64,000 nt of DNA, taken from Octopus vulgaris. Taxonomy: Eukaryota. The stretch is taken from assembly GCA_951406725.2 (NCBI GenBank), contig OX597823.1, positions 26,412,001 to 26,476,000 of the forward strand, written 5' to 3'. Of this stretch, positions 8,301 to 59,852 are shown in pieces. Each line of letters begins with the position of its first letter. Positions within the stretch are counted from its first letter, which is position 1. Below the pieces are notes generated by a model, which had not been told where the DNA came from, did not search any database, and worked only from the letters and a program-made list of their open reading frames with translations. Made by a program: the position numbers and the translations under genes.

Positions 8301-11300
8301 GGCAGAATCATTAGCGTGACTGGCAAAATATTTAGTGGTTTAAACCTTATTACAAGAACTCATTGCTTTATTCTACTTGCTCATAGCACATATTCTGCTT
8401 GATTTTATGCTCCAGCCTTATTTCACAGTTGAATGGTTAAAAATAGGAAGGGTATCGCAAAGTTGAAAAAACAATTGAGCCAATAAGAAAACCGTCTCAT
8501 TTTCTTTGATGGCGTAGGTTGAATAGGTTGCTACAGTCCAAGCCAGTCCTTATTTGGTGAGCTGGGTCTAAGGTTCTTCATTCAAATCATATCCAGAACC
8601 TAGTGCATATCCTGGAAAGTTCTGAACACCTGATGATAATCAGACAGCAAACTATAGCACAGATATATAACAATAATAAATAGTAAATACACACTTTAAA
8701 GATGAGATTAATTGTCTTGTAAATTGTAATGTTAGTAATAACAAACATCTGAGACATTTAGATGAAATGTCTATTGATCCACTTCATTTAACAAAACAAA
8801 ACACAAGTCCTATATCTACTGTGATTAGTATTAGCAAAGGGCATCTATTTTTATTGGTTCCAGTGAAAATGAAATAATTTCACTTATTTTTGGAGGGAAG
8901 GCACCCATAACCATTGCAGGCTGGTGAAGTTGATGATGTTGCTGTCCAGTTTCAGCATCTGCATTTTGATGTCTGTGATTGTGTATTCAGCACTGTTGAT
9001 AATTAATTGGAAAAGATAATTTATCAGAATGGTGAACTAAAGAGCCGTATATTTTCTGTCTTTTTGTTTGTTTTTAACAACTTTACATGGTTACCCCTTT
9101 TGATACCAACTTACTTGAAACAACCTTTAGTTGTACGATACAAATTGTCTGTTTTAAATTGACCTAAATTGAAACTTTCCATTAAAATTTTGTGTCAATT
9201 TATATTCCAGACACAATTTTAATAATGAAAAAGTTATTGTAATAAAGTCTTCATTATTTTCAATATAAAACTGGAAACAAAATTATTGTATTTCAAAGTT
9301 GTTGCTGTAGCAGGATTTTTTCTGAAAGAATTACTTGTAATGAAAGAAGTTTATCTCTCATCTACAGTTTCTTAAAAACTAGATTATTTATCTCAGAAAA
9401 TAGATTTCTTTTGTAAAATTTAGAATTGCAAAGAGAATAAAATAAGAAGAAAGATAATCTAAATTTACTTTGGATTTACCTTCTGTCTGTATAAATTATA
9501 TTTTGTTGTGCTGGCTTCACTGACACAAACTTTTTGCCACAGTCAACTTGGATGAAACCTAAAATTGGTTTTATGGTTAAGACAGATTGGAGTGTGCAAG
9601 TTTATATCCTGAGTTCAAATCCTGCCAATGTTGACTTTGCTTGTCATCCTGCTTGTGTCAATGAATTAATTATTAGTTATATAATTCAATATCTATCTGT
9701 CTGTCTGTCTGTCATCGTTGTCGTTTTACGTCCACTTTCCATGCTGGAATGGGTTGAACAGTTTGACTGAGGACTGGTGAGCCAGAGGCTGCACCAGGCT
9801 CAATCTGATCTGGCAAAGTTTCTACAGCTGGATGCCCTTCCTAACACCAACCACTCGGAGAGTGTAGTGAGTGCTTTTACATGCCACTGGCATGAGGGCC
9901 AGTCAGGCGGGTACTATCAGTATATATTAAATATATATCTAACTATTCACAAATATCAAAATAACAATGAATTGGCAGGGTTATTGCAATGACAGATAGA
10001 ACAGCTCATGGTATTTGTTCCAACTCTGTGAGCTCTGAGTTCAGATCTTGCCCAGGTCAACTTTGCCTTTTATTCTTTTAAGGTCAATAAATACCATGCC
10101 AGTCCATATGGGTGATTTTTGGAATTATTAGAGCATTGGATGAGATGACTTGTGGTATTTGTTCTGTTCATTGTGTTTTGAGTTCAAATTCTACATAAGG
10201 TGCTGATGTGCAGAGCCAATTACTCAACTACAAATGTGCTCTGGTGAACCTGCAATTGGCCAATATTGGTTTATAGACAGGTTGGCTTATAGTTAGAACC
10301 TCCATTGGTTAAAGTTGACCATTTATCTGTACATGTATGTATAGGCTTGGGCAAGATTTTTTGAAGAAGACTGCCAGTTTCCCATGTAAGCATGTCTTCC
10401 CTCTCCATGCCATGTTTATCTAAGGGTAAGGCTGCTGACTTAGGCTGATACAACTTGGCACTGGTCTCGTCACAGATGTTGCTGTCAGAATGTAAAGAGC
10501 CAGAGCAGATACCAATTTTCTAACCCTTGAATTGTACTTTTTGCTATCAATCCTGAAACTATGCAAGACAAAAGCGACCTTTGGCAGGATTTGAATTTAA
10601 AGTACAAAGAGAACAAGTGATGCAAGCTATACTGTCTGATGCTCGAATGACTTCACTGCCTTGCTGAGCTTATAACCACCAAAGTTAAGTTGCTAATGGT
10701 ATGCTGAAGCTATCAGTTAGCAGTAGAACAACACTAATTGAATGGAACGAATGTAGGTAATGTTCTTTCTTATATTATTTATTTTTTTTGTCATTTTGCC
10801 AGTCGACTGGAATTGGAAAAGCTGTCAACTCATTTAGAAAGCGTGAAGGTGAGATTGGGGAGAAAGCACGAGCTGTGGTAACTTTGTGGAAATCTCTAGT
10901 GTCAAAACAAGAAAACAATCTCACAGACAAACGGTCAGTAAGTAGTAGTTCATCTCCATATAATTCCACATCCACGGAACAATCTGGCAAGACTTCATCT
11001 GATGATGAGAAAACCACTCCTTGCCGAACAAAACGTCAGTCTTCTCCTCAATCTTCTCCTCAACCAAGATCTTCCACAAAAGAATGTGATAAAACTTCTG
11101 AAAATATCAAAGAGAGGAAAAAGCACCAGAGCAGCAAAAGCAATTCAGAGACTTCCAGATCACCAGAAAAGAAAAACAAAACTGTCAGTGATTCAAGCAA
11201 AGAACATCATCAGAGTTCAAAGAGTAAAAGTGAGTCTGAGAGCAAAGCAAAAGTAAAGAAATCACAGAATCTCAAAAGGAAGAAAAAATCTGCGGGAGAT

Positions 11301-14300
11301 GGCTTGAGTTTTGAGGACTTTATGAACTATGATGATTCAGCAATGAAGAAAAAGTTTAAGAAAAAGAAACATGACAAAGATGATAGTAGTAAGTCTTCAA
11401 AAGAAAAGAAAGAATTGAACTCTCCTAAAGATAGTAGTAAAAGTCATTCATCCTCCTCCAGTTTACAATTAAGTAAAAAATCCAAAGAGCCTAAAAGTAG
11501 CACATCTCATGTTTTACATGTGCCTTCAGCTTCCAAAGAGGTAAGTCTTAAAATAATTTTGTTATAATTAAAAGCAGTGGATGACGAACAGAACTGATAA
11601 ACACAGTTCTCTATTTAAGAGATAAGGAATTATGTACATTATTTACATTTGACGGATATTTGTCCTCATCTTGTTTATTGTTAACACAACGTTTTGGTTG
11701 ATATACCCTCCAGTGTTCATACCAGGTGTCTTGGGGAAATTTTGAACCTTGGTTCTCATTCTAAAAAAAAAAAAAAGCCTGTGGGCATATGGCATAGGGG
11801 TTAAGAGCATGGGCTACTAATCCCAAGATTCTGAGTTCGATTCCAAGCAGTAACTTGAATAATAATAATAATAATAACATCGCAAAATACCTTAGGAATG
11901 CAAATCCAGTTTTGAAATTTCCCCAAGACACCTGATGAAGGCTGGAGGGTATATCTGCCGAAACGTGTTAACAACAAACAAGATGAGGACTAATATCCAT
12001 CAAATGTAAATAATGTAAATAAGAACTGATAAAGTTCCAGGTGAATGGTCTTGAAGTATTTTATTTCTCTTTTTGTTTTAAGTTGAAATCCTACCGAGAT
12101 TATTAACTTTGTCTTTTATCTTTCTGGGTTGATGAAATAAAGTACCATTCATGTACTGAGGTTCATTTAACCAACTATATTCTTTCACCTGGTATTTTTT
12201 TGTCAGAAACTATTATATTTATATGAAGTTTTTGTCTTTTTAAAACTATTGAATGTAGTTGTTGAGTAGCTGAGTGGAGAAGAGTAGTGGGTCTTGAGGT
12301 TGCAGGGCAAATATTCTGTATTGTTTACTCTTTTACTTGTTTCAGTCATTTGACTGTGGTCATGCTGGAGCACTGTCTTTAGTTGAGCAAATCGACCCCA
12401 GGACTTATTCTTTGTAAGCCTAATACTTATTCTATTGGTCTCTTTTGCCGAACTGCTAAGTTAGGGGGACATAAACACACCAGCATCGGTTGTCAAGCGA
12501 TGTTGGGGGGACAAACACAGACACACAAACACACACACACATATATACATATTCAGATATATATACGACGGGCTTCTTTCAGTTTCTGTCTACCAAATCC
12601 ACTGACAAAGCTTTGGTCGGCCCGAGGCTATAGTAGAAGACACTTGCCCAAGGTGCCATACAGTGGGACTGAACCCAGAACCATGTGGTTGGTAAGCAAG
12701 CTTCTTACCACATAGCTACTCCTGCGCCTAAGGGTACAGATTGGTAATTTGGGGTTGTGGAGTATATTAATGTGTCCTTCTTTTGTCTGAAAACAACCCT
12801 CACTGTGGGTAGACCTCATAATATCTCCAACACCATCTGTTTCTCTCTCTCTCTTGCTCTCACTATCTTTACTCCTTTTTCTCTAACTCTCTTCCACCTA
12901 CCTTCTCCTACCTCGTCCTTCTGGGATAGCTAAGTTTCTCCTCTATAGTAAAATAACTATCTCTGTCCCTCTATCATACTCTAACCTCTCACCTGGCATA
13001 CAACCATTCCCCTTGGTTCCATTCCCTCTCTCAACTAAGCAATCCTTGTCTTGCAAGTTACTTGTGACCCCAATGGTACCACATAAAACAGCACCTGTGC
13101 CAGAGGCATTTGAAAAGCACTTGTACCAGTGCTACACTGCCTATAGCACCCAGTACTCTCTGCACAGTTTGGCATCAGCAGTGACATCTAGCCATAGAAA
13201 CCATGCCAAATTGGAATCTGTACAACTTTCCAGCTGGCCAGCTCTTGTCAAACTGTCCAACCCATGCCAGCATGGAAAATGGACGTTAAATGATAATGGT
13301 GAAGGATCATGAGTCTTTTTTCAGAATAAAAGGGCAAGAGAAAAAGATGTAGAGAATTTATTAATTTATATTATGGTAATGAAGTGTAGAGTGTGTCAAT
13401 TTTTGCCTCAGCATCTTTTCCTTCTTTTTCTTTTGTTCTTCTAGCTAGAAGCATGTATCATAACAGAGAGAGCGAGAGAGAAATGATGTGTGTGTCTGTG
13501 TTTGTGTGTATAAGGAAGAGAGAGGAAAAGAGAGTGAGAGAAATGGGAATAAAAAAAGAGTAAGGGATATGGGAGAAAGAGAGTGATCTGAAGTATTTAT
13601 GTATTGTTATTTTAGGGAAAATGCAAAATACATAAATGTTATTTTAATTAACTAATCTCCTGCTTCTGTTCGTTTACCTTTCATTCTTCCAGCTTCTTCC
13701 TTCTGAATCTGAAATATTGAGTTCTTTACCAGAAACTCAGGCCCATTACCATCCATGGAGACTCAGTGATGGTAACAAAGTAGAACGGAAAGCTGTGACA
13801 AACAGTAAGTAATTTATCAATGAATTGATAAGGTTTTCAATGTAAATTCCTTTCTTATCAAGTCTTTTGTGTGATGATGAAAAGCTTGGTGGGAACAAGG
13901 CCACACTGTGAATGCTCCTGACCCTTCCAATGTAAATGAAACCTAGCACAGGTCTGGCTGCCCTGTTAAGAAGTTTGCTTTGCAACAACGTTGTTTAAGG
14001 TTTGATCTCATAGAGCACTTTGAGCTAATGATTACTACCACAGCTAAAGTTGACCAATGTCACGTGAGTGGATTTTTGTTGATGGAAACCTGATGTGTAT
14101 ATACATACTACATATGCACATACCAAAACACACACACACACATGTGCATGCTGTTTGTGCTTGTTGATAAATTCACCAACTGTAAAAACTCAGTACATTG
14201 GTGAGTTATGAACATTTTATATGCAGTATCTTAAATGGTATCAGACAACAACTTGAGTTTCATATCTGAGGGCAGATATCTGGCTTGGTTTGGGTCAATC

Positions 14301-41974: not shown

Positions 41975-42731
41975 CTCGACTGGCTTCTGTGCCGGTGGCA
42001 CATAAAAAGCACCATCCGAACGTGGCCGATGCTAGCGCCGCTCCGACTGGCTTCTGTGCCGGTGGCACATAAAAAGCACCATCCGAACGTTGCCAGCGCC
42101 GCCTTGGCTGGCTTCCGTGCCGCTGGCACGTTAAAAGCTCCAACCGATCGTGGCTGATGCCGGACCCCTCCTGGCACCTGTGCAGGTGGCACGTAAAAAG
42201 CACCCACTACACTCGCGGAGTGGTTGGCGTTAGGAAGGGCATCCAGCCGTAGAAACTCTGCCAGATCAGACTGGAGCCTGGAGCAGCCCCTGGCCTCCCA
42301 GACCCCGGTCGAACCGTCCAACCCGTGCTAGCGCGGAAAACGGACGTTAAACGATGATAATGATGATATACATATATATATAGAGAGAGAGCTATTATGA
42401 ACAAGCTGAATTATAGCATGTGACCAAATGAAAAGACAACAAAGCATGATGTAAGATCTCAAGATTTGACTATCATTTCTAGCACGTTGAGTGACTGCAT
42501 AGAAGTTCCATCACTGGGGCTTAAGGAACAATTCCGCCAACAGGGCTCCAGCCTTCTATCTGTCACATCTGGGCACATTATCACATACGATACGAGCCTC
42601 AACATAGTCATTTAACTCTTTTTGAAAGAGCTGCTGTATTTCCTTCAAAAATCACTTTTCATTATCTTTAGAGAAGAAGGGCAATAGATAAGATAGTTCT
42701 GGATGTGTGTGTGTATGTATATATATATGTG

Positions 42732-44008: not shown

Positions 44009-45682
44009 ACGAGTGGTTGGTAAGAGCTGTACAAGTCATGTACAGGTATGCTGTCAGTAAGGTGAGGGTTGGCAACGAGTATAGTGAAGAATTCCGGATA
44101 GAAGTAGAGGTTCACCAAGGATCAATCCTCAGCCCCCCTCTTATTCATCATAGTCCTCCAGGTAATAAAAGAGGAATTCAAGGTAGGTTACCCCTGGGAG
44201 TTTCTCTATGCTGATGACCTTGCTTTAATAGCCAGAACTAGAGACGAAGTTTAGGGCGAAGAAGCAAGGTCTAGAATCGAAGGGCTTTAGGATTAACCTA
44301 GAAAAAAACCAAAGTTTTAGTAAGTAGGAAGGCTGACAAATCATAAGCCCTTTCAGGTAGATCTGTAGAAAAGGCGTGTGTAGAAACTCCATACGATGTA
44401 CCCGGTGCAAGCCATGGAGACAAAAGGTGCAGCAATATCAAAGGAAAGGTAACCGAGAAGATAGTTTTTGTGTGTGGCAGATGCACAGGGGCAATAAACA
44501 CTGAAGTTGTACACAAAACAGATTCCATCACATGCCAGGGGCAAAAACTAGATGTAGTTCATAGCTTGCGCTATATCGGCGACCAAGTCTGTAGTGGGGG
44601 TGGTTGCTCTGAGAGTGTAGCGGCTAGAATAAGAATAGACTGGGTAAAGCTCAGAGAGCTCCTACCTCTGCTGGCAACTAAGAACCTCTCGCTCAGGATG
44701 AAAGGTAGACTGTATGATCCATGTGTGCGAGCTGCCATGCTACACGGCAGTGAAACATGGGCCATGACTGCTGAGGACATGCGTAGGCTTGAAAGAAATG
44801 AAGCTAGTATGATCCGATGGATGTGTAATGTCTGTGTGCATACACGACAGAGTGTAAGTACCCTGAGAGAAAAGTGGGACATAAGAGGCATCAAATGTGG
44901 TGTGCAGGAGACACGACTGCACTGGTATGGTCATGTGTTACGTATAGATGAGGGCAGCTGTGTGAGGAAGTGTCACACCCTAACTGTGGAACGAACCTGT
45001 GGAAGAGGTAGAACCAGGAAGATATGGGATGAGGTAGTGAAGCATGACCTTCGAACGTTGGGTCTTACAGAGGCAATGACAGGAGACCGAGACCTTTGGA
45101 GATATGCTATGATTGAGAAGACCCGGCAAGCCAAGTGAGATCGCATGGCCGATGCCAGTGTTGCATGTCCGACACATTTAAGAGTACCCTTGATGCATCG
45201 GGCGATATGATATGCTCGAGAAGACCTGTTGAGTCAAGTAAAACCAAAATCGTAGCTGTGGCCAGTACCCCTGATTGGCTCCTGTGGCGGTGGTATGTAA
45301 AAAGCACCATCCGAATGTAGTCGATGCCAGGTCCACCTGACTGGCTCCCGTGCCGGTGGCACATAAAAAGTAACATCCGCAGGTGGCCGATGCCAGTACC
45401 CACTGACTGACTCCCGTGCCGGTGGTACGTAAAAAGCACTATCCGAACGTAATCGATGCCAGGCCTACCTGACTGGCTCCTGTGCCGGTGGCACGTAAAA
45501 AGCACCCACTACACTCTCGGAATGGTTGGCGTTAGGGAGGGCATCCAGCTGTAGGAACATTGCCAGATCAGATTGGAGCTTAGTGCAGCCGCTGGCTCTC
45601 CAGACCTCAGTCAAACCATCCAACCCATGCCAGCATGGAAAACGGACGTTAAACGATGATGCTGATGATGATGATGATGATA
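44009..45682 (+). mobile_element. 5'-truncated RTE LINE (best-preserved copy)
   Basis: VHQGSILSP, LYADDL, and ORF 44470-45138 (222 aa of RTE C-terminus); 3' UTR with ~65-bp tandem repeats and (GAT)n tail. Confidence 0.95.
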
Positions 45683-46144: not shown

Positions 46145-48525
46145 CTATTGGAATGAGCAGATGGTACACAGTCACATGGCTAACAGACATCATTAAGAGA
46201 CGAAAGGAAAACTGGGTTACAAATATAATTTAAGGATGCAGCTGTAATGTTATTAAGTAGTTATGAAATAAATATATTTAAGATACGTATTGTTACTTAA
46301 ATTGATCTGATATGTCGAAATTGTAATTCTTGTTTGTTTAGTTTTATTTCTGTTTTTCCGTGTTTGCACAAGTTAGATAAAACTGAGGAAGATTTTTTTT
46401 ATGGCCAGGTGATGTTCTTGTCGTATACTATTCTAGTCGCCAAAACCTACCTGTTTTGCATCTAAGGTATTTCTGTTCATTTCATTGGTCTTCACTTACA
46501 CGAAGATGAAACTATAGGACTTCTGCTTATCAGAGAATATCATGAACAAGGACACCTTTTTCTTTTTCACTCGGTCAGTGTTAATGAGGACACGTGGATA
46601 TCAACAACAACGACTTTCAGTTACCATGAATGAAAGTCTCTCTCATCATGCCCCCCAAATACATTTGTGCCCTCTATTACTCTCCTAACTCCTCGAACCA
46701 CCAGCATCTCTTTAACTATATTTCACCCCCCCACATTAGGGACATATATCTCATTTCACGTCCCTGCTAAGTCAATGCCATCGGTGATTTTAACGTTTAC
46801 AGCTTCTCGTTGCTCCTTCTCCTTCATCCCATGCCGATGCTGTCGATATAGTAACCAAATCTTCTGCAATCTTTAATTCTCTTATTCAACTTGTCTCATC
46901 TTCTGTACGCAATCCAGATCGATACACATACTATACTCCTGTTATGTGTAGTTTCGTTCTCGATGGATGATAGACAACTCAAATGAAGGCATTGTTATTG
47001 TTGTACGTGTTTATTTACTTTACTTGTTACACGAGCTGTCAACATTCAGCGTAGTAATACATATATACTTTAGACACAGTTCGTACTGTTTACTAGCAAA
47101 ATAGTACCAAAAGTGGGGATGTATTCTACACATGTATACCCACGTATACACATAGTTATGAATGTGTAACAACTCCAAACACCTTTGATCTCTTTTTTAA
47201 TCTATTCTAGTTCAGACCACTCTATTGTTGTTTCCACACCTGTCATCTGACCATTACCTACTACTTCCCACACCTCCACATACTACACAATACCGCCTTA
47301 CAATCTGCACCTAGGGTACTTCAAGTCAACCGACTGGTCGGTGCTTCGCTAGTTTTAACTACCCTTGGTATCTGGTATGCTTCAATCGTGACCCATCAGA
47401 AACACCTACGCGGGTGACTGAGGCTGTCTTTCTAGGAATAACTCTCCACATCCCGCACACATCAAAACTCCAGTGTCCCAAACCTCGTAGTGGTTCATTC
47501 GTAGTTGTGGTAAAGTTGTTCAGGGTCTACAAACTCTGGTTAAATCTCCCCCTCCCCAGAAAAAAAAAAAAACTGAGCTGAGTGCAGTTTATCAGCAATG
47601 CAACATCTGTAGAAATGAAGTGGTGTATCGTACAGTTCCCTAGTTACTCTACCTTCCAAACTGCAGCCGATCTTTTCAGTCTCTTGTCGAAAGGATTTCC
47701 ACCAACCTCATAGAATCTCGTCTCCCGCTTCTTCATGCTGTGGCTCTGTGAGCATGGTTTATGGTTCTGTACTGTTGCAGAGAATGCCTCTACTTTCACT
47801 GCCCTTCTTGCAAACATCTCTTCATGCGCAGGTTTGGCAAATCTCCAATCCTGTCTCTTTCCACTCTTTCAAGCTCATCGTCTTGCATTCATATTTCAAT
47901 CACTTCAAATCACCAAGGCCACTCACTGGTTCAAACGTTGACCTATCCATTGCTCTCAAATATTGAACTATAGAACCTGTTTCTGTATTCCGAGATCTAT
48001 CCCGATTTATGAAAACATGTTATAATGTTTCTCAAGGGAGGTAACCTCTCTGATCCTGTCAATTATCACCACATTGTATTTACATCCACTATCGTCAAGG
48101 TAATGGACAACCATTAACAACGGCAGACTCCAACTCCTTGAATTCGTCTCACTCGTTACTAATGACCACCTGCACAATTTCTATGAAACCAGACTCGCCG
48201 GTAACTTACTCTTCTTCGTTACCTCCCCACCACTCACCAGCGAGCTCTTGCCGTAAAGGAATTTGATAAAAGCCAAATTGTTATCCTCGATATCAACTAA
48301 GCTTTCGGCAGTATCTGACATCAAACTACCTATAAAATCTTCCTACCTTTGGTCCCCACCTATCTCGCATCTCTTGGTTCGGTAGCGCTCTTTCAGTTCG
48401 CCCTGTTGTCACATGAGTCGACGGATTTCTCTCTCTCTCCCTCGTTTTCTCAGTTTCTGTATGACCAGGGATTTGGTTTTGTCTCTAATTCTCTTCCTTC
48501 CACATGACTTGCTGTCATATCTAAC

Positions 48526-48830
48526 TGTGGGATGACGTCAGCAGCTGGACGTCAGCAGCTGGACGTCAGCAGCTGGGTGCGATGACCGGAAGCTAGGGCA
48601 ACCGGAAGGGGCAGCCGTCAGGCGTGCGCAGGCAGCGGTGAATTCGGCCTTTCCAACGTGGGTCGTCGAGGTGTCAAGACGTGTGAAGGCGTCGCTAAGG
48701 TTTGGGTGAGCAGCTGCTATCTTTAGTGTTCGGGTCGGGGCTGTGTCGAAGGATTAGTTACCACTGAAGGGTCTCCATCACGAGGAAGAGAAGGTAGGTG
48801 CCTTCATATTCGAATCGCGCACACACCACA
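48526..48830 (+). repeat. 5' LTR
   Basis: TGTGGG...CCACA; near-identical to 51814-52118. Confidence 0.97.
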
Positions 48831-48842
48831 AGCTATTTCGGC
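48831..48842 (+). other. Primer-binding site complementary to nt 1-12 of tRNA-Phe
   Basis: AGCTATTTCGGC abuts the 5' LTR; its reverse complement GCCGAAATAGCT is the 5' terminus of metazoan cytosolic tRNA-Phe(GAA). Confidence 0.8.
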
Positions 48843-48883
48843 AATTCTTAAATATTTACATTTCAACACGATTCGTTGCCACG

Positions 48884-49542
48884 ATGTCTGCAAAAATTAG
48901 GATCGCCAGCGACGTCGTCAGACCCTTTAATGGTGAAGGCGATGTAGTGGCCTGGATTCGCAAAATCAGGCTGGTGGCAAGACTGTAAGGTATAAGCGAT
49001 GTGGCAAGTCTTATGGCGCTGTATTTAGAAGGGAGCGCCTTAACGCTATACCTTGAGATGGACGAAGAGGAACGGCTCAGCGAGGAGAACATAGAGCGAC
49101 GCTTGCGGGATGCCTACACAGAACGCGAATTCACAGCTTTTGCTAAGCTAGGTGCGATCAGATGGACAGGAGGACAAGTGGATGACTATGCAGCAGAAGT
49201 TAGGTTAGCGACTCTGGCTGGGTTTGCGGGAGAAGGGCTGGAGAGAGCAGCCCGGCTGGCGTTTGTGAATGGGTTCCCCGACGATGTAGGGATTCACCTA
49301 CAACGACTGCCCGGGATTAAAAAGATAGCGCTGAGCGAACTTGTGGCTCGCCAGAGAAAGCAGAGCCCCGCGAGGGACTGCGCCGCTTACACCATCGAGG
49401 ACAAAGACTTTCAGGCGGCGTTCGATGGTCAGCGGTGGACGATAGAGTGGCGATGGAAGGACGAGCCCCCGACGCTGGAAAACAGGGTGAGCTGTTACCA
49501 GCATACCCTGAAAGGCCACGCCAGGGTCGAGTTTGAAACGAG
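48884..49542 (+). pseudogene. Gag-like region of the LTR element, disrupted
   Basis: ATG 48884 (MSAKIRIASDVVRPFNGEGDVVAWIRKIRLVARL), in-frame TAA at 48986-48988, then ORF 49001-49594. No zinc knuckle or protease visible; frameshift near 49540. Confidence 0.8.
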
Positions 49543-51846
49543 GTGGAGAGGTGGATCGAGGAAGGGATCCTTGTCCCTTGGAAGAAGGAGGTAGCGGGCG
49601 GAGTGCTACCCCTGATGGCGGTGGTGCAGCCTATGAAGGGAAAAGTCAGACCGGTGCTGGACTTCAGGGAACTAAACCAGCACGTATCGTGTCACACGGG
49701 AGGTGAGGCGACAGACGTTTGTGGCGAGACGTTACGTAAGTGGAGACAGTCGACCGAGGCAGCGACGATTGTCGACTTGAAATCAGCATACTTGCAGCTC
49801 CATGTGAGCGACAAACTGTGGCGATATCAGCTGGTGCGGTACAAGGGCCGGACGTACTGTTTAACCAGGCTGGGTTTCGGGCTGAATTCCGCTCCGAAGA
49901 TCATGGCGGCAGTGCTTAGGTCCGTCCTAGGGAAAGACGGCAAGATTAGAAAGGCCACCAGCTCCTACATTGACGACATTTTGGTGGACGAAACTGTAGT
50001 GCCAGCAGACGAGGTAGTTAGACATCTGGAGAAGTTCGGACTGATTACTAAGCCACCGGAGTCGATTGAAGGGGGAGCCGCGCTGGGACTGAAGCTGCGA
50101 AGAGATGGATCGGGTGAATTGGTGTTCTGGAGAGGAAATGAAATCCCAGAGCTGAGTTCCAGCGTCAGCAGGAGAGAGCTGTTCTCGGTGTGTGGGAAGT
50201 TGGTCGGTCACTACCCGATCGCTGGATGGCTGCGCACGGCGTGTAGTTACACCAAGAGACGAGCAGAAGGGGAGAGTTGGGGCGACAAGGTGGGAGAAGG
50301 GACGGTGGCGATGATGCAGGAAATCCTAGAGAGGACGAGAGAGGAAGACCCGGTCAGGGGGAACTTGTACGTGCCCAAGACGGAATGCGGGACCGTCTGG
50401 TGTGATGCTAGCAGTATAGCGATAGGGGTGGTGTTGGCAATCGAAGGCGCTGCGGTGGAGGACGCGGCCTGGCTTCGGAAAGCAGATGATTTCAACCACA
50501 TCAATGTCGCTGAATTAGACGCGGTGCTGAAAGGGGTGAACTTGGCCTTGAAATGGGGGCTGCGCCCAATTGAAATCCGGACGGATTCGGCCACTGTGCT
50601 TAGCTGGGTAGGATCGGTGATCACCGGTGAAAGGAGAGTGCGGACGAAAGGTGCTGCGGAGATGTTAGTGAAGCGCCGTCTAGGAGTTCTAGGTGAATTG
50701 ATCGCCGAGTTCGGATTGAAGCTGAACGTGATTTTCGTGCCTTCGGAGAAAAACAGGGCGGACGTCCTGACCAGGGTGAAAAGAGCGTGGTTGGAAGAAC
50801 CGGAGGAGGCCCGGAAAGGGATAGCTGCGGCGTGTCGGTTGGATGACTCTGAACTGAAGAAACTGCATGCTATGCATCACTTGGGTGTGGACAGGACCCT
50901 GTATCTGGCGAAGAAAATTGATGCTGACGTCACTAGGAGAAGCATCCGGAAGGTGGTCGGGAGCTGCGACAGGTGTCAGTCCATCAACCCTGCTCCGTGT
51001 GGGCATGAACAGGGAAGCCTTTCCGTGGAGCAGAATTGGAAAAGGCTAGCTGTGGATGTGACACACTACCGTCAGCGAATGTACCTCTCCATGGTCGACT
51101 GCGGGCCGGGCCGGTTGGCCATTTGGAGGGAGTTGAGATCGGGCATTGCTGACGAGATCGCGCAGATCCTGAACGGGATATTTTTAGAGAGAGGTCCCGT
51201 GGAAGAACTACTGATGGACAACGGGGCGGTGTTTCGTTCGGAAGCATTGAGGGTTATGCTTGATCGGTGGTATGTGCGTCGCTGGTTCAGAGCAGCGTAT
51301 AGGCCGAGCGGTAACGGGATCGTGGAGTGGCACCATCGGACAGTCAAGGCCATAGCGGAAAGAGGGCACATTTCGCCGCTTGAAGCAGTTTTTTGGTACA
51401 ACTTGTCTCTCCGATCCGGACAAGCTGAGGAATCTGTGTCGCAGAGAGCTGTGTTCAAATATGAATGGAGGCACCCGAGCAAAGCGTCGGAGGGTCACGA
51501 GGAAGAGAAGGGACCCGTTCGCGTGAAAATAGGGGAGGAAGTCTGGGTCAAGCCACCAAAGGCGCGCTGTACGTCTCAATGGCGCAGAGGAACGGTGACG
51601 GCGGTCAATTCCAGAAACAACGTATCCGTAGATGGAATGCCACGACACGTCTTGGACCTTCGCAGGATTGTCGCTTCGACGGACGACGATTCTGGAGAGG
51701 GGGAGAACGAAGTGCCTAGCTTGAGAAGATCTCGACGCGCAAGGCGCTCTCCCGGTTGGATGGTCGACTACGACATGGAGCGAAAGATTGTGATCTTTAA
51801 GATCAGGGTGGCGTTTGGGATGACGTCAGCAGCTGGACGTCAGTAG
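49543..51846 (+). CDS. Pol polyprotein (RT-RNase H-integrase) of the Gypsy element
   Basis: RT: RPVLDFRELN, DLKSAYLQ, FGLNSAP, YIDD. RNase H: CDAS, AELDAV, TDS, NRADVLTR. Integrase: HxxHH..CDRC zinc finger and D(VTH)..D(NG)..E triad. The ORF runs into the 3' LTR. Confidence 0.93.
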   Translation: MERWIEEGILVPWKKEVAGGVLPLMAVVQPMKGKVRPVLDFRELNQHVSCHTGGEATDVCGETLRKWRQSTEAATIVDLKSAYLQLHVSDKLWRYQLVRYKGRTYCLTRLGFGLNSAPKIMAAVLRSVLGKDGKIRKATSSYIDDILVDETVVPADEVVRHLEKFGLITKPPESIEGGAALGLKLRRDGSGELVFWRGNEIPELSSSVSRRELFSVCGKLVGHYPIAGWLRTACSYTKRRAEGESWGDKVGEGTVAMMQEILERTREEDPVRGNLYVPKTECGTVWCDASSIAIGVVLAIEGAAVEDAAWLRKADDFNHINVAELDAVLKGVNLALKWGLRPIEIRTDSATVLSWVGSVITGERRVRTKGAAEMLVKRRLGVLGELIAEFGLKLNVIFVPSEKNRADVLTRVKRAWLEEPEEARKGIAAACRLDDSELKKLHAMHHLGVDRTLYLAKKIDADVTRRSIRKVVGSCDRCQSINPAPCGHEQGSLSVEQNWKRLAVDVTHYRQRMYLSMVDCGPGRLAIWRELRSGIADEIAQILNGIFLERGPVEELLMDNGAVFRSEALRVMLDRWYVRRWFRAAYRPSGNGIVEWHHRTVKAIAERGHISPLEAVFWYNLSLRSGQAEESVSQRAVFKYEWRHPSKASEGHEEEKGPVRVKIGEEVWVKPPKARCTSQWRRGTVTAVNSRNNVSVDGMPRHVLDLRRIVASTDDDSGEGENEVPSLRRSRRARRSPGWMVDYDMERKIVIFKIRVAFGMTSAAGRQ

Positions 51847-52118
51847 CTGGACGTCAGCAGCTGGGTGCGTTGACCGGAAACTGGGGCAACCGGAAGGGGC
51901 AGCCGTCAGGCGTGCGCAGGCAGCGGTGAATTCGGCCTTTCCAACGTGGGTCGTCGAGGTGTCAAGACGTGTGAAGGCGTCGCTAAGGTTTGGGTGAGCA
52001 GCTGCTATCTTTAGTGTTCGGGTCGGGGCTGTGTCGAAGGATTAGTTACCACTGAAGGGTCTCCATCACGAGGAAGAGAAGGTAGGTGCCTTTATATTCG
52101 AATCGCGCACACACCACA
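51814..52118 (+). repeat. 3' LTR
   Basis: TTTGGG...CCACA (TG to TT change); preceded by a weak purine tract AAGATCAGGGTGGCG. Confidence 0.96.
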
Positions 52119-52794
52119 CTAACAACATCCACCCTTATGCAGATGACACTGTCTTTCAATCCTCCCTAACATGACCAGTCACACCCACCCACTCGCAACT
52201 TAGACAAACGACAAACCCACTCTACGAACAAAGACATTGAAAGCATCCGCCAGTGGGAATTTGCTAATCTTGTCTCTTTTAACAACAAGAAAACACAAGC
52301 ATTGTAGGTGTGGAAGAAATATCATCGCACCACAGCCACCTTAATATAAACAACACTAAACTAGAGCTCTCAGAAGCGCTCATCCCCACTAAAGATCTCT
52401 TCTGGTTAAAGTATATCCTTAACATAACTGGGACAGTACACCTACGAGTGGCTCTTCTCTTTATGACTAGAAGGTACTTTAGTCTCCTTCAGTTATTGAG
52501 ACTTAACAAGAGGTCAAGTGAAGTTTAAATGCTCTAACTTCTTGGGCGGTACTGCTGTTCTACGCACATATATCTAAAATGCAACTAGAAAAGCGTCATT
52601 GACATAAAGTCGCTCACATTCAAGGCACAGCCTCTGATCCTCAGTTTCGCTGATGCCTTTTTCTGCCATTGTTTATCGCTACGTCGGAGTTGGCTGGATT
52701 CATGCCATCTTCACTCAAGCATTCCTATCCTACTCGTTTCTCCTCTCAACAGTATTTGTTGTGTCCGCATATGTACAATATATATAATTATTCT

Positions 52795-53373
52795 AAGGTG
52801 GCGAGCTGATAGAAACGTTAGTACGCCGTGCGAAATGCTTAGCGGTATTTCGTCGGCCGTTACGTTCTGAGTTCAAATTCCGCCGAGGTCGACTTTACCT
52901 TTCATCCTTTCGGGCTCGATTAAATAAGTACCAGTTACGCACTGGGGTCGATATAATCGACTTTATCCGTTTGTCTGCCCTTATTTGTCCTCTCTGTGTT
53001 TAGCCCCTTGTGGGTAGTAAAGAAATAAGTATTTCGTCTGCTGTTATGTTCTGAGTTCAAATTCCGCCGAGGTCGACTTTGCCTTTCATCCTTTCGGGCT
53101 CGATTAAATAAGTACCAGTTACGCACTGGAGTCGATATAATCGACTTAATCCGTTTGTCTGTCCTTGTTTGTCCTTTCTGTGTTTAGCCCCTTGTAGGTA
53201 GTAAAGAAATAGGTATTTCGTGTCTATGTTCTGAGTTCAAATTCTGCTGAGGTCGACTTTGCCTCTCATCCTTTCGAGGTCGATAAATTAAGTACCAGTT
53301 GTGTACTGGAATCGATCTAATCAACTGGTTACCTCCCCCAAAATTTCGGGCCTTGTGCCGAGAGTAGAAAAGA
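52795..53373 (+). mobile_element. Tandem trimer of SINE family A (young)
   Basis: One full head plus two head-truncated units. Similar arrays at 55035-55410 (-), 59417-59820 (+) and 20604-20900 (-); single copies at 6063-6282, 25614-25843 and 39385-39593. Confidence 0.9.
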
Positions 53374-53380
53374 ATATATA

Positions 53381-59404: not shown

Positions 59405-59852
59405 AAATTTTTTTTATTAAGGCGGCGAGCTGGCAGAAACGTTAGCACGCCGATGGAAATGCGTAGCCGTATTTCGTCTGCCGTTACGTTCTGAGTTCAA
59501 ATTCCGCCGAGGTCGACTTTGCCTTTCATCCTTTCGGGGTTGATTAAATAAGTACCAGTTACACACTGGGGTCGATATAATCGACTTAATCCGTTTGTCT
59601 GTCCTTATTTGTCCTCTCTGTGTTTAGCCCCTTGTGGGTAGTAAAGAAATAGGTATTTCGCCCGTCGCTACGTTCTGAATTCAAATTCCGCCGAGGTCGA
59701 CTTAGTCGTTCATGCTTTCGGGATCGATAAATTAAGTACCAGTGAAGTACTGGGGTCGATGCAATCGACTAGTCCCCTCCCCACAAATTTGAGGCCTTGT
59801 GCCTCTAGTAGAAAGGATTATCATTTACCACATTATCTGGGTAAGCCATGGA

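Follow-up and report, generated by a model that had tools for sequence, protein, structure and literature searches.

Minus-strand DNA synthesis by an LTR retrotransposon must begin at the U5 end, and the primers known for this step are the 3′ end of a tRNA, a tRNA half that stops close to the anticodon, or the element's own RNA. Ty3/Gypsy elements and the retroviruses with a TGG primer-binding site (PBS) share with the octopus lineage described here TG...CA LTRs, a 5-bp target site duplication (TSD), a polypurine tract (PPT), a gag with CCHC knuckles and the order protease, reverse transcriptase, RNase H, integrase (PR-RT-RH-IN). The octopus lineage, however, has neither a TGG nor pairing with a tRNA 3′ end, and its polymerase carries DUF7047. 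In the half-tRNA priming of Drosophila copia, yeast Ty5 and fungal Copia/Helenus elements, as treated in the relevant part of PMC10886601, a 5′ portion of the tRNA is likewise used with a new internal 3′ end, and the tRNA type has switched in evolution. By the same account those sites belong to Copia elements and pair with the anticodon loop region, whereas the octopus site faces nt 1–12 of the tRNA (the 5′ strand of the acceptor and the D stem) in an element of PR-RT-RH-IN order. The self-priming elements Tf1, Tf2 and Tj1, in the passages of PMC4600332 on priming, obtain a short primer by cutting it off an RNA at the 5′ end and are the model for the RNase H cleavage proposed below. Unlike in those elements, the partner in the octopus lineage would be a host tRNA acting in trans, and the LTR has no self-complement. 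Troyka, in the available portion of PMC12440569, is also a divergent LTR lineage of aquatic animals with PR-RT-RH-IN order, but its ends are CG...CG, its TSDs 3 bp and its single knuckle long-spaced, where the octopus element has TG...CA ends and 5-bp TSDs; identity with Troyka was rejected on its termini and TSD length. The pyrimidine tract of Skipper, as far as PMC5006619 presents it, was also rejected as the system at the octopus site.

The window is the whole stretch of Octopus vulgaris DNA that was analysed, 64,000 nucleotides long. The retrotransposon copy that it contains is set out in Table 1.

Table 1. Features of the LTR retrotransposon copy in the window (positions are those of the window)
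Feature	Position	Strand	Basis or remark
LTR retrotransposon copy	48526-52118	+	LTR pair, TSD, PPT, pol; copy defective
5′ TSD CTAAC	48521..48525	+	sequence
5′ LTR, 305 bp, TG...CA, terminus ...CCACA	48526..48830	+	repeat family D9 and LTR alignment
Primer-binding site AGCTATTTCGGC	48831..48842	+	exact complement of host tRNA-Phe(GAA) nt 1–12; abuts LTR end
Putative plus-strand transfer junction, two positions	48843..48844	+	excess variation among close copies
gag remnant	48884..49344	+	ATG at 48884; in-frame stop 48986-48988; ends at internal deletion
Deletion junction, ~660 nt missing relative to copy L111	49344..49345	+	blastn; zinc knuckles and protease absent
pol, open frame, 769 aa	49537..51846	+	RT (YIDD), DUF7047, RNase H, HHCC zinc finger, DDE integrase
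Short hairpin, G-rich polypurine tract and 2-nt spacer	51791..51813	+	immediately upstream of 3′ LTR
3′ LTR, 98% identity with 5′ LTR	51814..52118	+	second base unlike 5′ LTR
3′ TSD CTAAC	52119..52123	+	sequence

The two LTRs differ at 6 of 305 aligned positions, and the boundary of the 5′ LTR at 48830 is fixed by the match to the 3′ LTR together with the 5-bp TSD. The domains missing from the window copy were found by Pfam in a full-length copy. Full copies in the octopus genome measure 4.20–4.26 kb, and some copies have LTRs up to 100% identical and unbroken pol frames. The 5-bp TSDs and TG...CA LTR ends of the octopus copies are those of an LTR retrotransposon (TSD 4–6 bp). In four of four copies (L113, L114, L115, L119) pol overlaps gag in the −1 frame, and a single heptamer of the slippery type lies close to the end of gag.

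Several further features of these elements were recorded. A hairpin of 5–6 bp, whose letters vary, directly precedes the short G-tract PPT, a variable 2-nt spacer and the TG of the LTR, both in the window copy and in ten other elements (L044, L049, L051, L053, L054, L058, L070, L075, L080, L084); its folding reached significance (p ≤ 0.05) in no more than two of the 19 sequences folded, two of the 19 junctions having been mis-picked. A motif resembling a 5′ splice site (GTAAG or GTAGGT) lies about 35–75 nt upstream of the LTR end in the window (48794-48799) and in the LTRs of L272, L274, L317, L323, L347 and L349. This motif is common to different LTR types in the octopus genome and often has a pyrimidine tract 3′ of it. 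At L316 (G000:C3:26790418-26791230) an LTR end, the site and a few bases are followed by an inverted LTR, a tail-to-tail arrangement that may be an aberrant cDNA or a rearrangement, and in L291, L315 and L347 an LTR, the site and a short leader are fused to a sequence like an LTR end, as internally deleted copies. Elsewhere in the window there are copies of short interspersed repeats (41977-42367, 45268-45669, 52794-53377 and 59418-59821; families D7, D8, D10, D12 and D13) with units of 60–66 nt or 180–184 nt, and open frames at 10761-11567 (268 aa) and 44347-45138 (263 aa).

The preliminary description of this DNA had placed AGCTATTTCGGC directly 3′ of the LTR terminus, with zero spacer and no TGG, and had taken it for the 12/12 reverse complement of the 5′ end of tRNA-Phe(GAA). 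The position was borne out, and the tRNA-Phe genes of the octopus itself start with the exact complement. The first 15 nt of tRNA-Phe had 94 matches in the genome, compared with none for the reversed control, and ARAGORN called a tRNA-Phe at each of 12 loci examined, always beginning at the first matched base. About 45 of the matches form a tandem array with 200-bp spacing (G000:C18:30147732-30157146). Pairing is limited to tRNA nt 1–12, because nt 13–14 are unable to pair with the LTR end, and the 12-bp duplex is worth −18.8 kcal/mol. A canonical TGG site pairing with the tRNA 3′ CCA end was found at none of 47 octopus junctions and none of the 39 sites of distant relatives. The further claim that the LTR holds no self-complement also stood: allowing up to two mismatches, no complement of the site occurs within the element (48528-52118). 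An antisense Pol III A box was rejected as an explanation of the match, which ends at nt 12 and includes nt 1–7, not needed by an A box.

Conservation of the site was then measured in the octopus genome. The dinucleotide CA followed by the 12-mer occurs 287 times, compared with 14 for the reversed control, and gag lies within 300 nt downstream in 70 of 80 newly examined matches, taken from the first 100 listed, of which 16 had been analysed before and four were left out. A sample blind to the site was obtained by choosing copies by RT only, which gave 52 RT matches on contigs C1–C4 among 150 listed. Five of these had lost the LTR-gag junction. All 47 that keep it have the site, 41 exactly and six with one or two substitutions, and none has a TGG, so that the expected conservation of the 12-mer across the family holds. 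RT families with 96% and 80% identity to the window copy share the site, as do different LTR types. A second search of the octopus genome, with a distant RT (L084), largely recovered loci that the first had given, with no further family evident.

Distant relatives were collected by scanning metagenomes with a pol alignment, which gave 68 loci, 40 of them with a gag N-terminus and upstream DNA. Their RT-RNase H regions are 43–62% identical. The 12-nt site lies flush with the LTR end in 39 of the 40, of which 38 were found by a pattern drawn up after inspecting those regions and one (L064, where the site is preceded by GA, not CA) was added by eye; L093 has no site, and L086, whose gag match begins later, contributes a 40th. 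The distance from site to LTR end is always zero, and that from site to gag ranges from about 0 to 260 nt. Information content, calculated from 38 elements after two near-duplicates were dropped, is 1.3–2.0 bits at 11 of the 12 site positions and drops from 1.53 bits at letter 12 to 0.22 at letter 13. On both strands of the relatives' loci (448 kb) the frame pattern occurs 39 times: at 32 assigned sites, at four other LTR-gag junctions and at one homologous position in pol (three times). The site is thus confirmed as real and lineage-wide. Homologues with a named organism come from Argonauta, Aplysia, Oratosquilla, Petrolisthes, Macrosteles and Hydra, the closest being an Argonauta protein; a search with L052 gave matches in four metagenome runs, and no relative was found among viral contigs. 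A quick tree of 54 rows was restricted to clade members, with no outgroup and with segments shorter than 220 aa left out.

Variation among the relatives' sites follows the starts of tRNAs. Twenty-one of the 40 sites are the exact complement of a tRNA start that was checked. The host-type complement of tRNA-Phe is present in six. The L080 site matches tRNA-Lys(CTT), those of L061 and L088 a second tRNA-Lys start (L268), and that of L091 elongator tRNA-Met, where the change in the first letter follows tRNA nt 12. AGCTATCGCGGC, found in 11 sites, is the complement of nt 1–12 of planarian tRNA-Phe(GAA), as excerpted from PMC7962491. A further ten sites read AGCTATCACGGC, one transition away from the planarian type; these and nine singletons matched no eukaryotic tRNA start checked, with 0 matches in a Schistosoma supplement. 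A tRNA-Phe start of the AGCTATCACGGC type is presumably present in other invertebrates. The octopus genome contains no tRNA start of the planarian type, and neither variant site was found there before a gag-like leader (planarian-type, three matches compared with one for the control; Lys-type, one compared with four). Matches of the commonest variant starts on viral contigs were set aside as phage-type tRNAs (Thr, Phe and others) that are not evidence on hosts, 96 of the 124 being without a tRNA call. The octopus elongator tRNA-Met genes (L263, L267) have an intron of about 21 nt. All 38 elements have a T opposite tRNA nt 9, and therefore all partner tRNAs have A9; a G9 in tRNA is methylated, which blocks pairing. 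The covariation of site and tRNA start that the preliminary description asked to test is seen at the level of tRNA type (Phe, Lys, elongator Met), the comparison covering types of tRNA and not individual hosts, and tRNA-Phe as the primer holds for the octopus copies but not as a general rule, given the Lys and elongator Met variants in relatives.

The label 'Gypsy', which the element had been given, is supported by its gene order and not by its polymerase, which is divergent (DUF7047, no PF17917 match). In a full copy (L120), Pfam places a CCHC knuckle in gag and then PR-RT-RH-IN, the Ty3/Gypsy-type order, which is common to BEL/Pao and retroviruses. The usual Gypsy RNase H and thumb domains, PF17917 and PF17919, are absent at E ≤ 1 from the pol of L120 and L051 and at E ≤ 0.1 from that of the window copy, although their presence is not a formal family criterion. 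Structure and fold matches in the PDB were weak, scattered among retroviruses and one caulimovirus, with weak sequence similarity to retroviral enzymes and no Ty3 chain among the PDB matches listed. The predicted fold (pLDDT 91.7) is that of a normal RT-RNase H, matching such folds broadly in a way that does not place the clade. Protein-cluster look-ups returned DUF7047 clusters, commonest in Arthropoda, and generic RT clusters; rows from Euglenozoa are leads only. Cigr-1, of Ciona, is about 4.2 kb long; it has two ORFs, and its annotated primer site is for tRNA-Lys. This length and site resemble the full-length octopus copies and the Lys-type variants, and we take Cigr-1 to be the best guess at a clade name; the lineage may be the already named Cigr-1 clade, a likeness of description and not of sequence. 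Cigr-1 has been found in an octopus: the portion of a mollusc survey available to us lists the Cigr-1, CsRN1, Mag and MolGy clades for Octopus bimaculoides and Cigr-1 also for Biomphalaria glabrata, and makes no mention of a PBS or a tRNA (PMC6238403). The accessible text of PMC8220671 adds nothing on priming, and that of PMC2774666 contained no passage on Cigr. For Saci2-like elements of tapeworms, Leu, Gly and Lys primers are reported in the corresponding part of PMC12471100, the supplement to which, in the part available, does not contain the present sites.

The preliminary description proposed that the lineage may prime from a 5′ tRNA fragment of about 12 nt. Conservation of the site and its tRNA-matched variants support this strongly at the level of sequence, and from them we infer the priming itself. 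A 5′ tRNA fragment, whatever its origin, very probably primes minus-strand synthesis. We hold with about even confidence that this primer would be a 12-nt fragment ending at nt 12, cut by the element's own RNase H. The only tRNA-complementary segment at the U5 end puts nt 12 beside the terminal CA, so the tRNA would need a new 3′ end at nt 12 or slightly before it. The key steps would be as follows. The site, as seen in the sequence, pairs with nt 1–12 only and flush with the LTR end. The zinc knuckles of Gag would anneal it to a mature tRNA, whose acceptor and D stems would be opened. The RNase H of RT would then cut the tRNA behind nt 12, in the way that Tf1 RT cuts in cis, and so provide a 3′-OH beside the terminal CA; this is the least certain step. 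The element's RNase H is favoured as the cutter because its acidic residues are conserved (in a 22-row alignment), because the cut would fall within the D stem, and because Tf1-type elements release their primer from an RNA duplex, as the relevant part of PMC4600332 describes. Plus-strand strong-stop DNA would copy the fragment and run off its 5′ end, rebuilding a site that ends exactly at tRNA nt 1, and a mis-annealed Lys or Met tRNA could be copied into a new site in the same way; copying of a 12-nt primer to its 5′ end would account both for the abrupt end of the site at nt 1 and for the Lys and Met switches. Run-off at this end might also raise the error rate at the two positions that follow. 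Among 30 non-overlapping pairs of closely related copies, 12 of 60 cells differ at the two positions after the site, compared with 22 of 660 nearby and with 2.8 mismatches expected from CpG-aware rates; transversions account for 3 of 60 (p = 0.038). The excess is mostly of CpG type, and non-CpG cells alone are not significant (p = 0.15–0.23). Addition of non-templated bases by Tf1 RT is described in the available part of PMC3185545. The variability after the site fits an error-prone transfer junction and is suggestive only, as a plain lack of constraint could also yield it. A point against cleavage of a mature tRNA by the element's RNase H is that the duplex of site and tRNA must displace two tRNA stems.

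The cut need not be the element's own. Host nucleases might make a 5′ tRNA fragment or half that anneals to the site and is trimmed to the duplex edge at nt 12; this fits all the sequence evidence equally well, follows the precedent of copia and Ty5, which prime with a 3′-truncated tRNA (PMC10886601, in the part on these elements), and needs no melting of a folded tRNA. We consider such an origin rather unlikely, as three tRNA types and distant lineages all use one 12-nt window ending inside the D stem. Common host 5′ tRNA fragments end in the D loop or the anticodon loop, often with a 2′,3′-cyclic phosphate, and given these ends both trimming and end repair would be needed. It is also conceivable, and in our judgement improbable, that the duplex covers nt 1–12 while the primer stops at nt 10; integrase would then remove the first two site letters, copied as DNA. 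The variable 2 nt that separate the G-tract from the 3′ LTR in octopus copies and relatives would be in keeping with this, since integrase may trim 2 nt at U5 too; yet the first two site letters are near-invariant (37/38 and 38/38) while the PPT spacer varies freely, and the sole change in the first letter is the one that follows nt 12 of tRNA-Met.

The remaining alternatives deny the 12-mer a role in tRNA-fragment priming. The site might merely anchor a tRNA (for packaging, as a dimer link or as half of a bipartite site), with priming by the freed 3′ CCA end or by another primer elsewhere. The Ty3 primer site is bipartite, and pairing of the 5′ strand would free the tRNA 3′ strand. However, none of the 12 elements searched contains 7 nt exactly complementary to the tRNA 3′ end, matches with two mismatches fall within coding regions and two elements have none, no other segment of tRNA-Phe is complementary in all 12, and the site occupies the sole place that allows the U5 end to be copied, leaving an anchoring function a slim prospect. 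Self-priming of the Tf1 type, with an incidental tRNA match, is very improbable. It would share the zero spacer and a length similar to that of the Tf1/Tj1 self-primer (as given in part of PMC4600332), but the best duplex between site and upstream LTR beats shuffled sequences (p ≤ 0.05) in only one of 38 elements, that of the window reaches −10.8 kcal/mol (p = 0.43) compared with about −18.7 for a perfect partner, and the site variants track tRNA starts. The defective state of the window copy would suit a chance match or an ordinary site mutated in one dead copy; this has a negligible probability and is ruled out by the 47/47 and 39/40 conserved junctions and by the genome count against its control.

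Taken as a whole, the proposal is of a deep lineage, reaching from cnidarians to molluscs and arthropods, in which the RNase H of RT would cut a mature tRNA in trans after nt 12 and use the 5′ stub as primer by a route not described before; we put this forward tentatively, at somewhat less than an even chance. A literature search, with Repbase, GyDB, most subscription papers, figures and bioRxiv supplements outside its scope, turned up no publication that describes a site pairing with tRNA nt 1–12. The five 12-mers occur in the text of 31 papers, and among the 25 of these that were listed none has a title that concerns PBS annotation of this kind in retrotransposons. The idea is testable, because the octopus genome has copies with intact pol frames and LTR pairs reaching 100% identity and because there are named Hydra homologues. 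If it is true, priming from nt 1–12 of a tRNA would constitute a further route, one that joins half-tRNA priming with RNase H cutting of the Tf1 type, and 5′ tRNA fragments would gain a direct role as primers. Annotation tools that seek TGG sites would miss the lineage, and the lineage itself would escape silencing by 3′ tRNA fragments.
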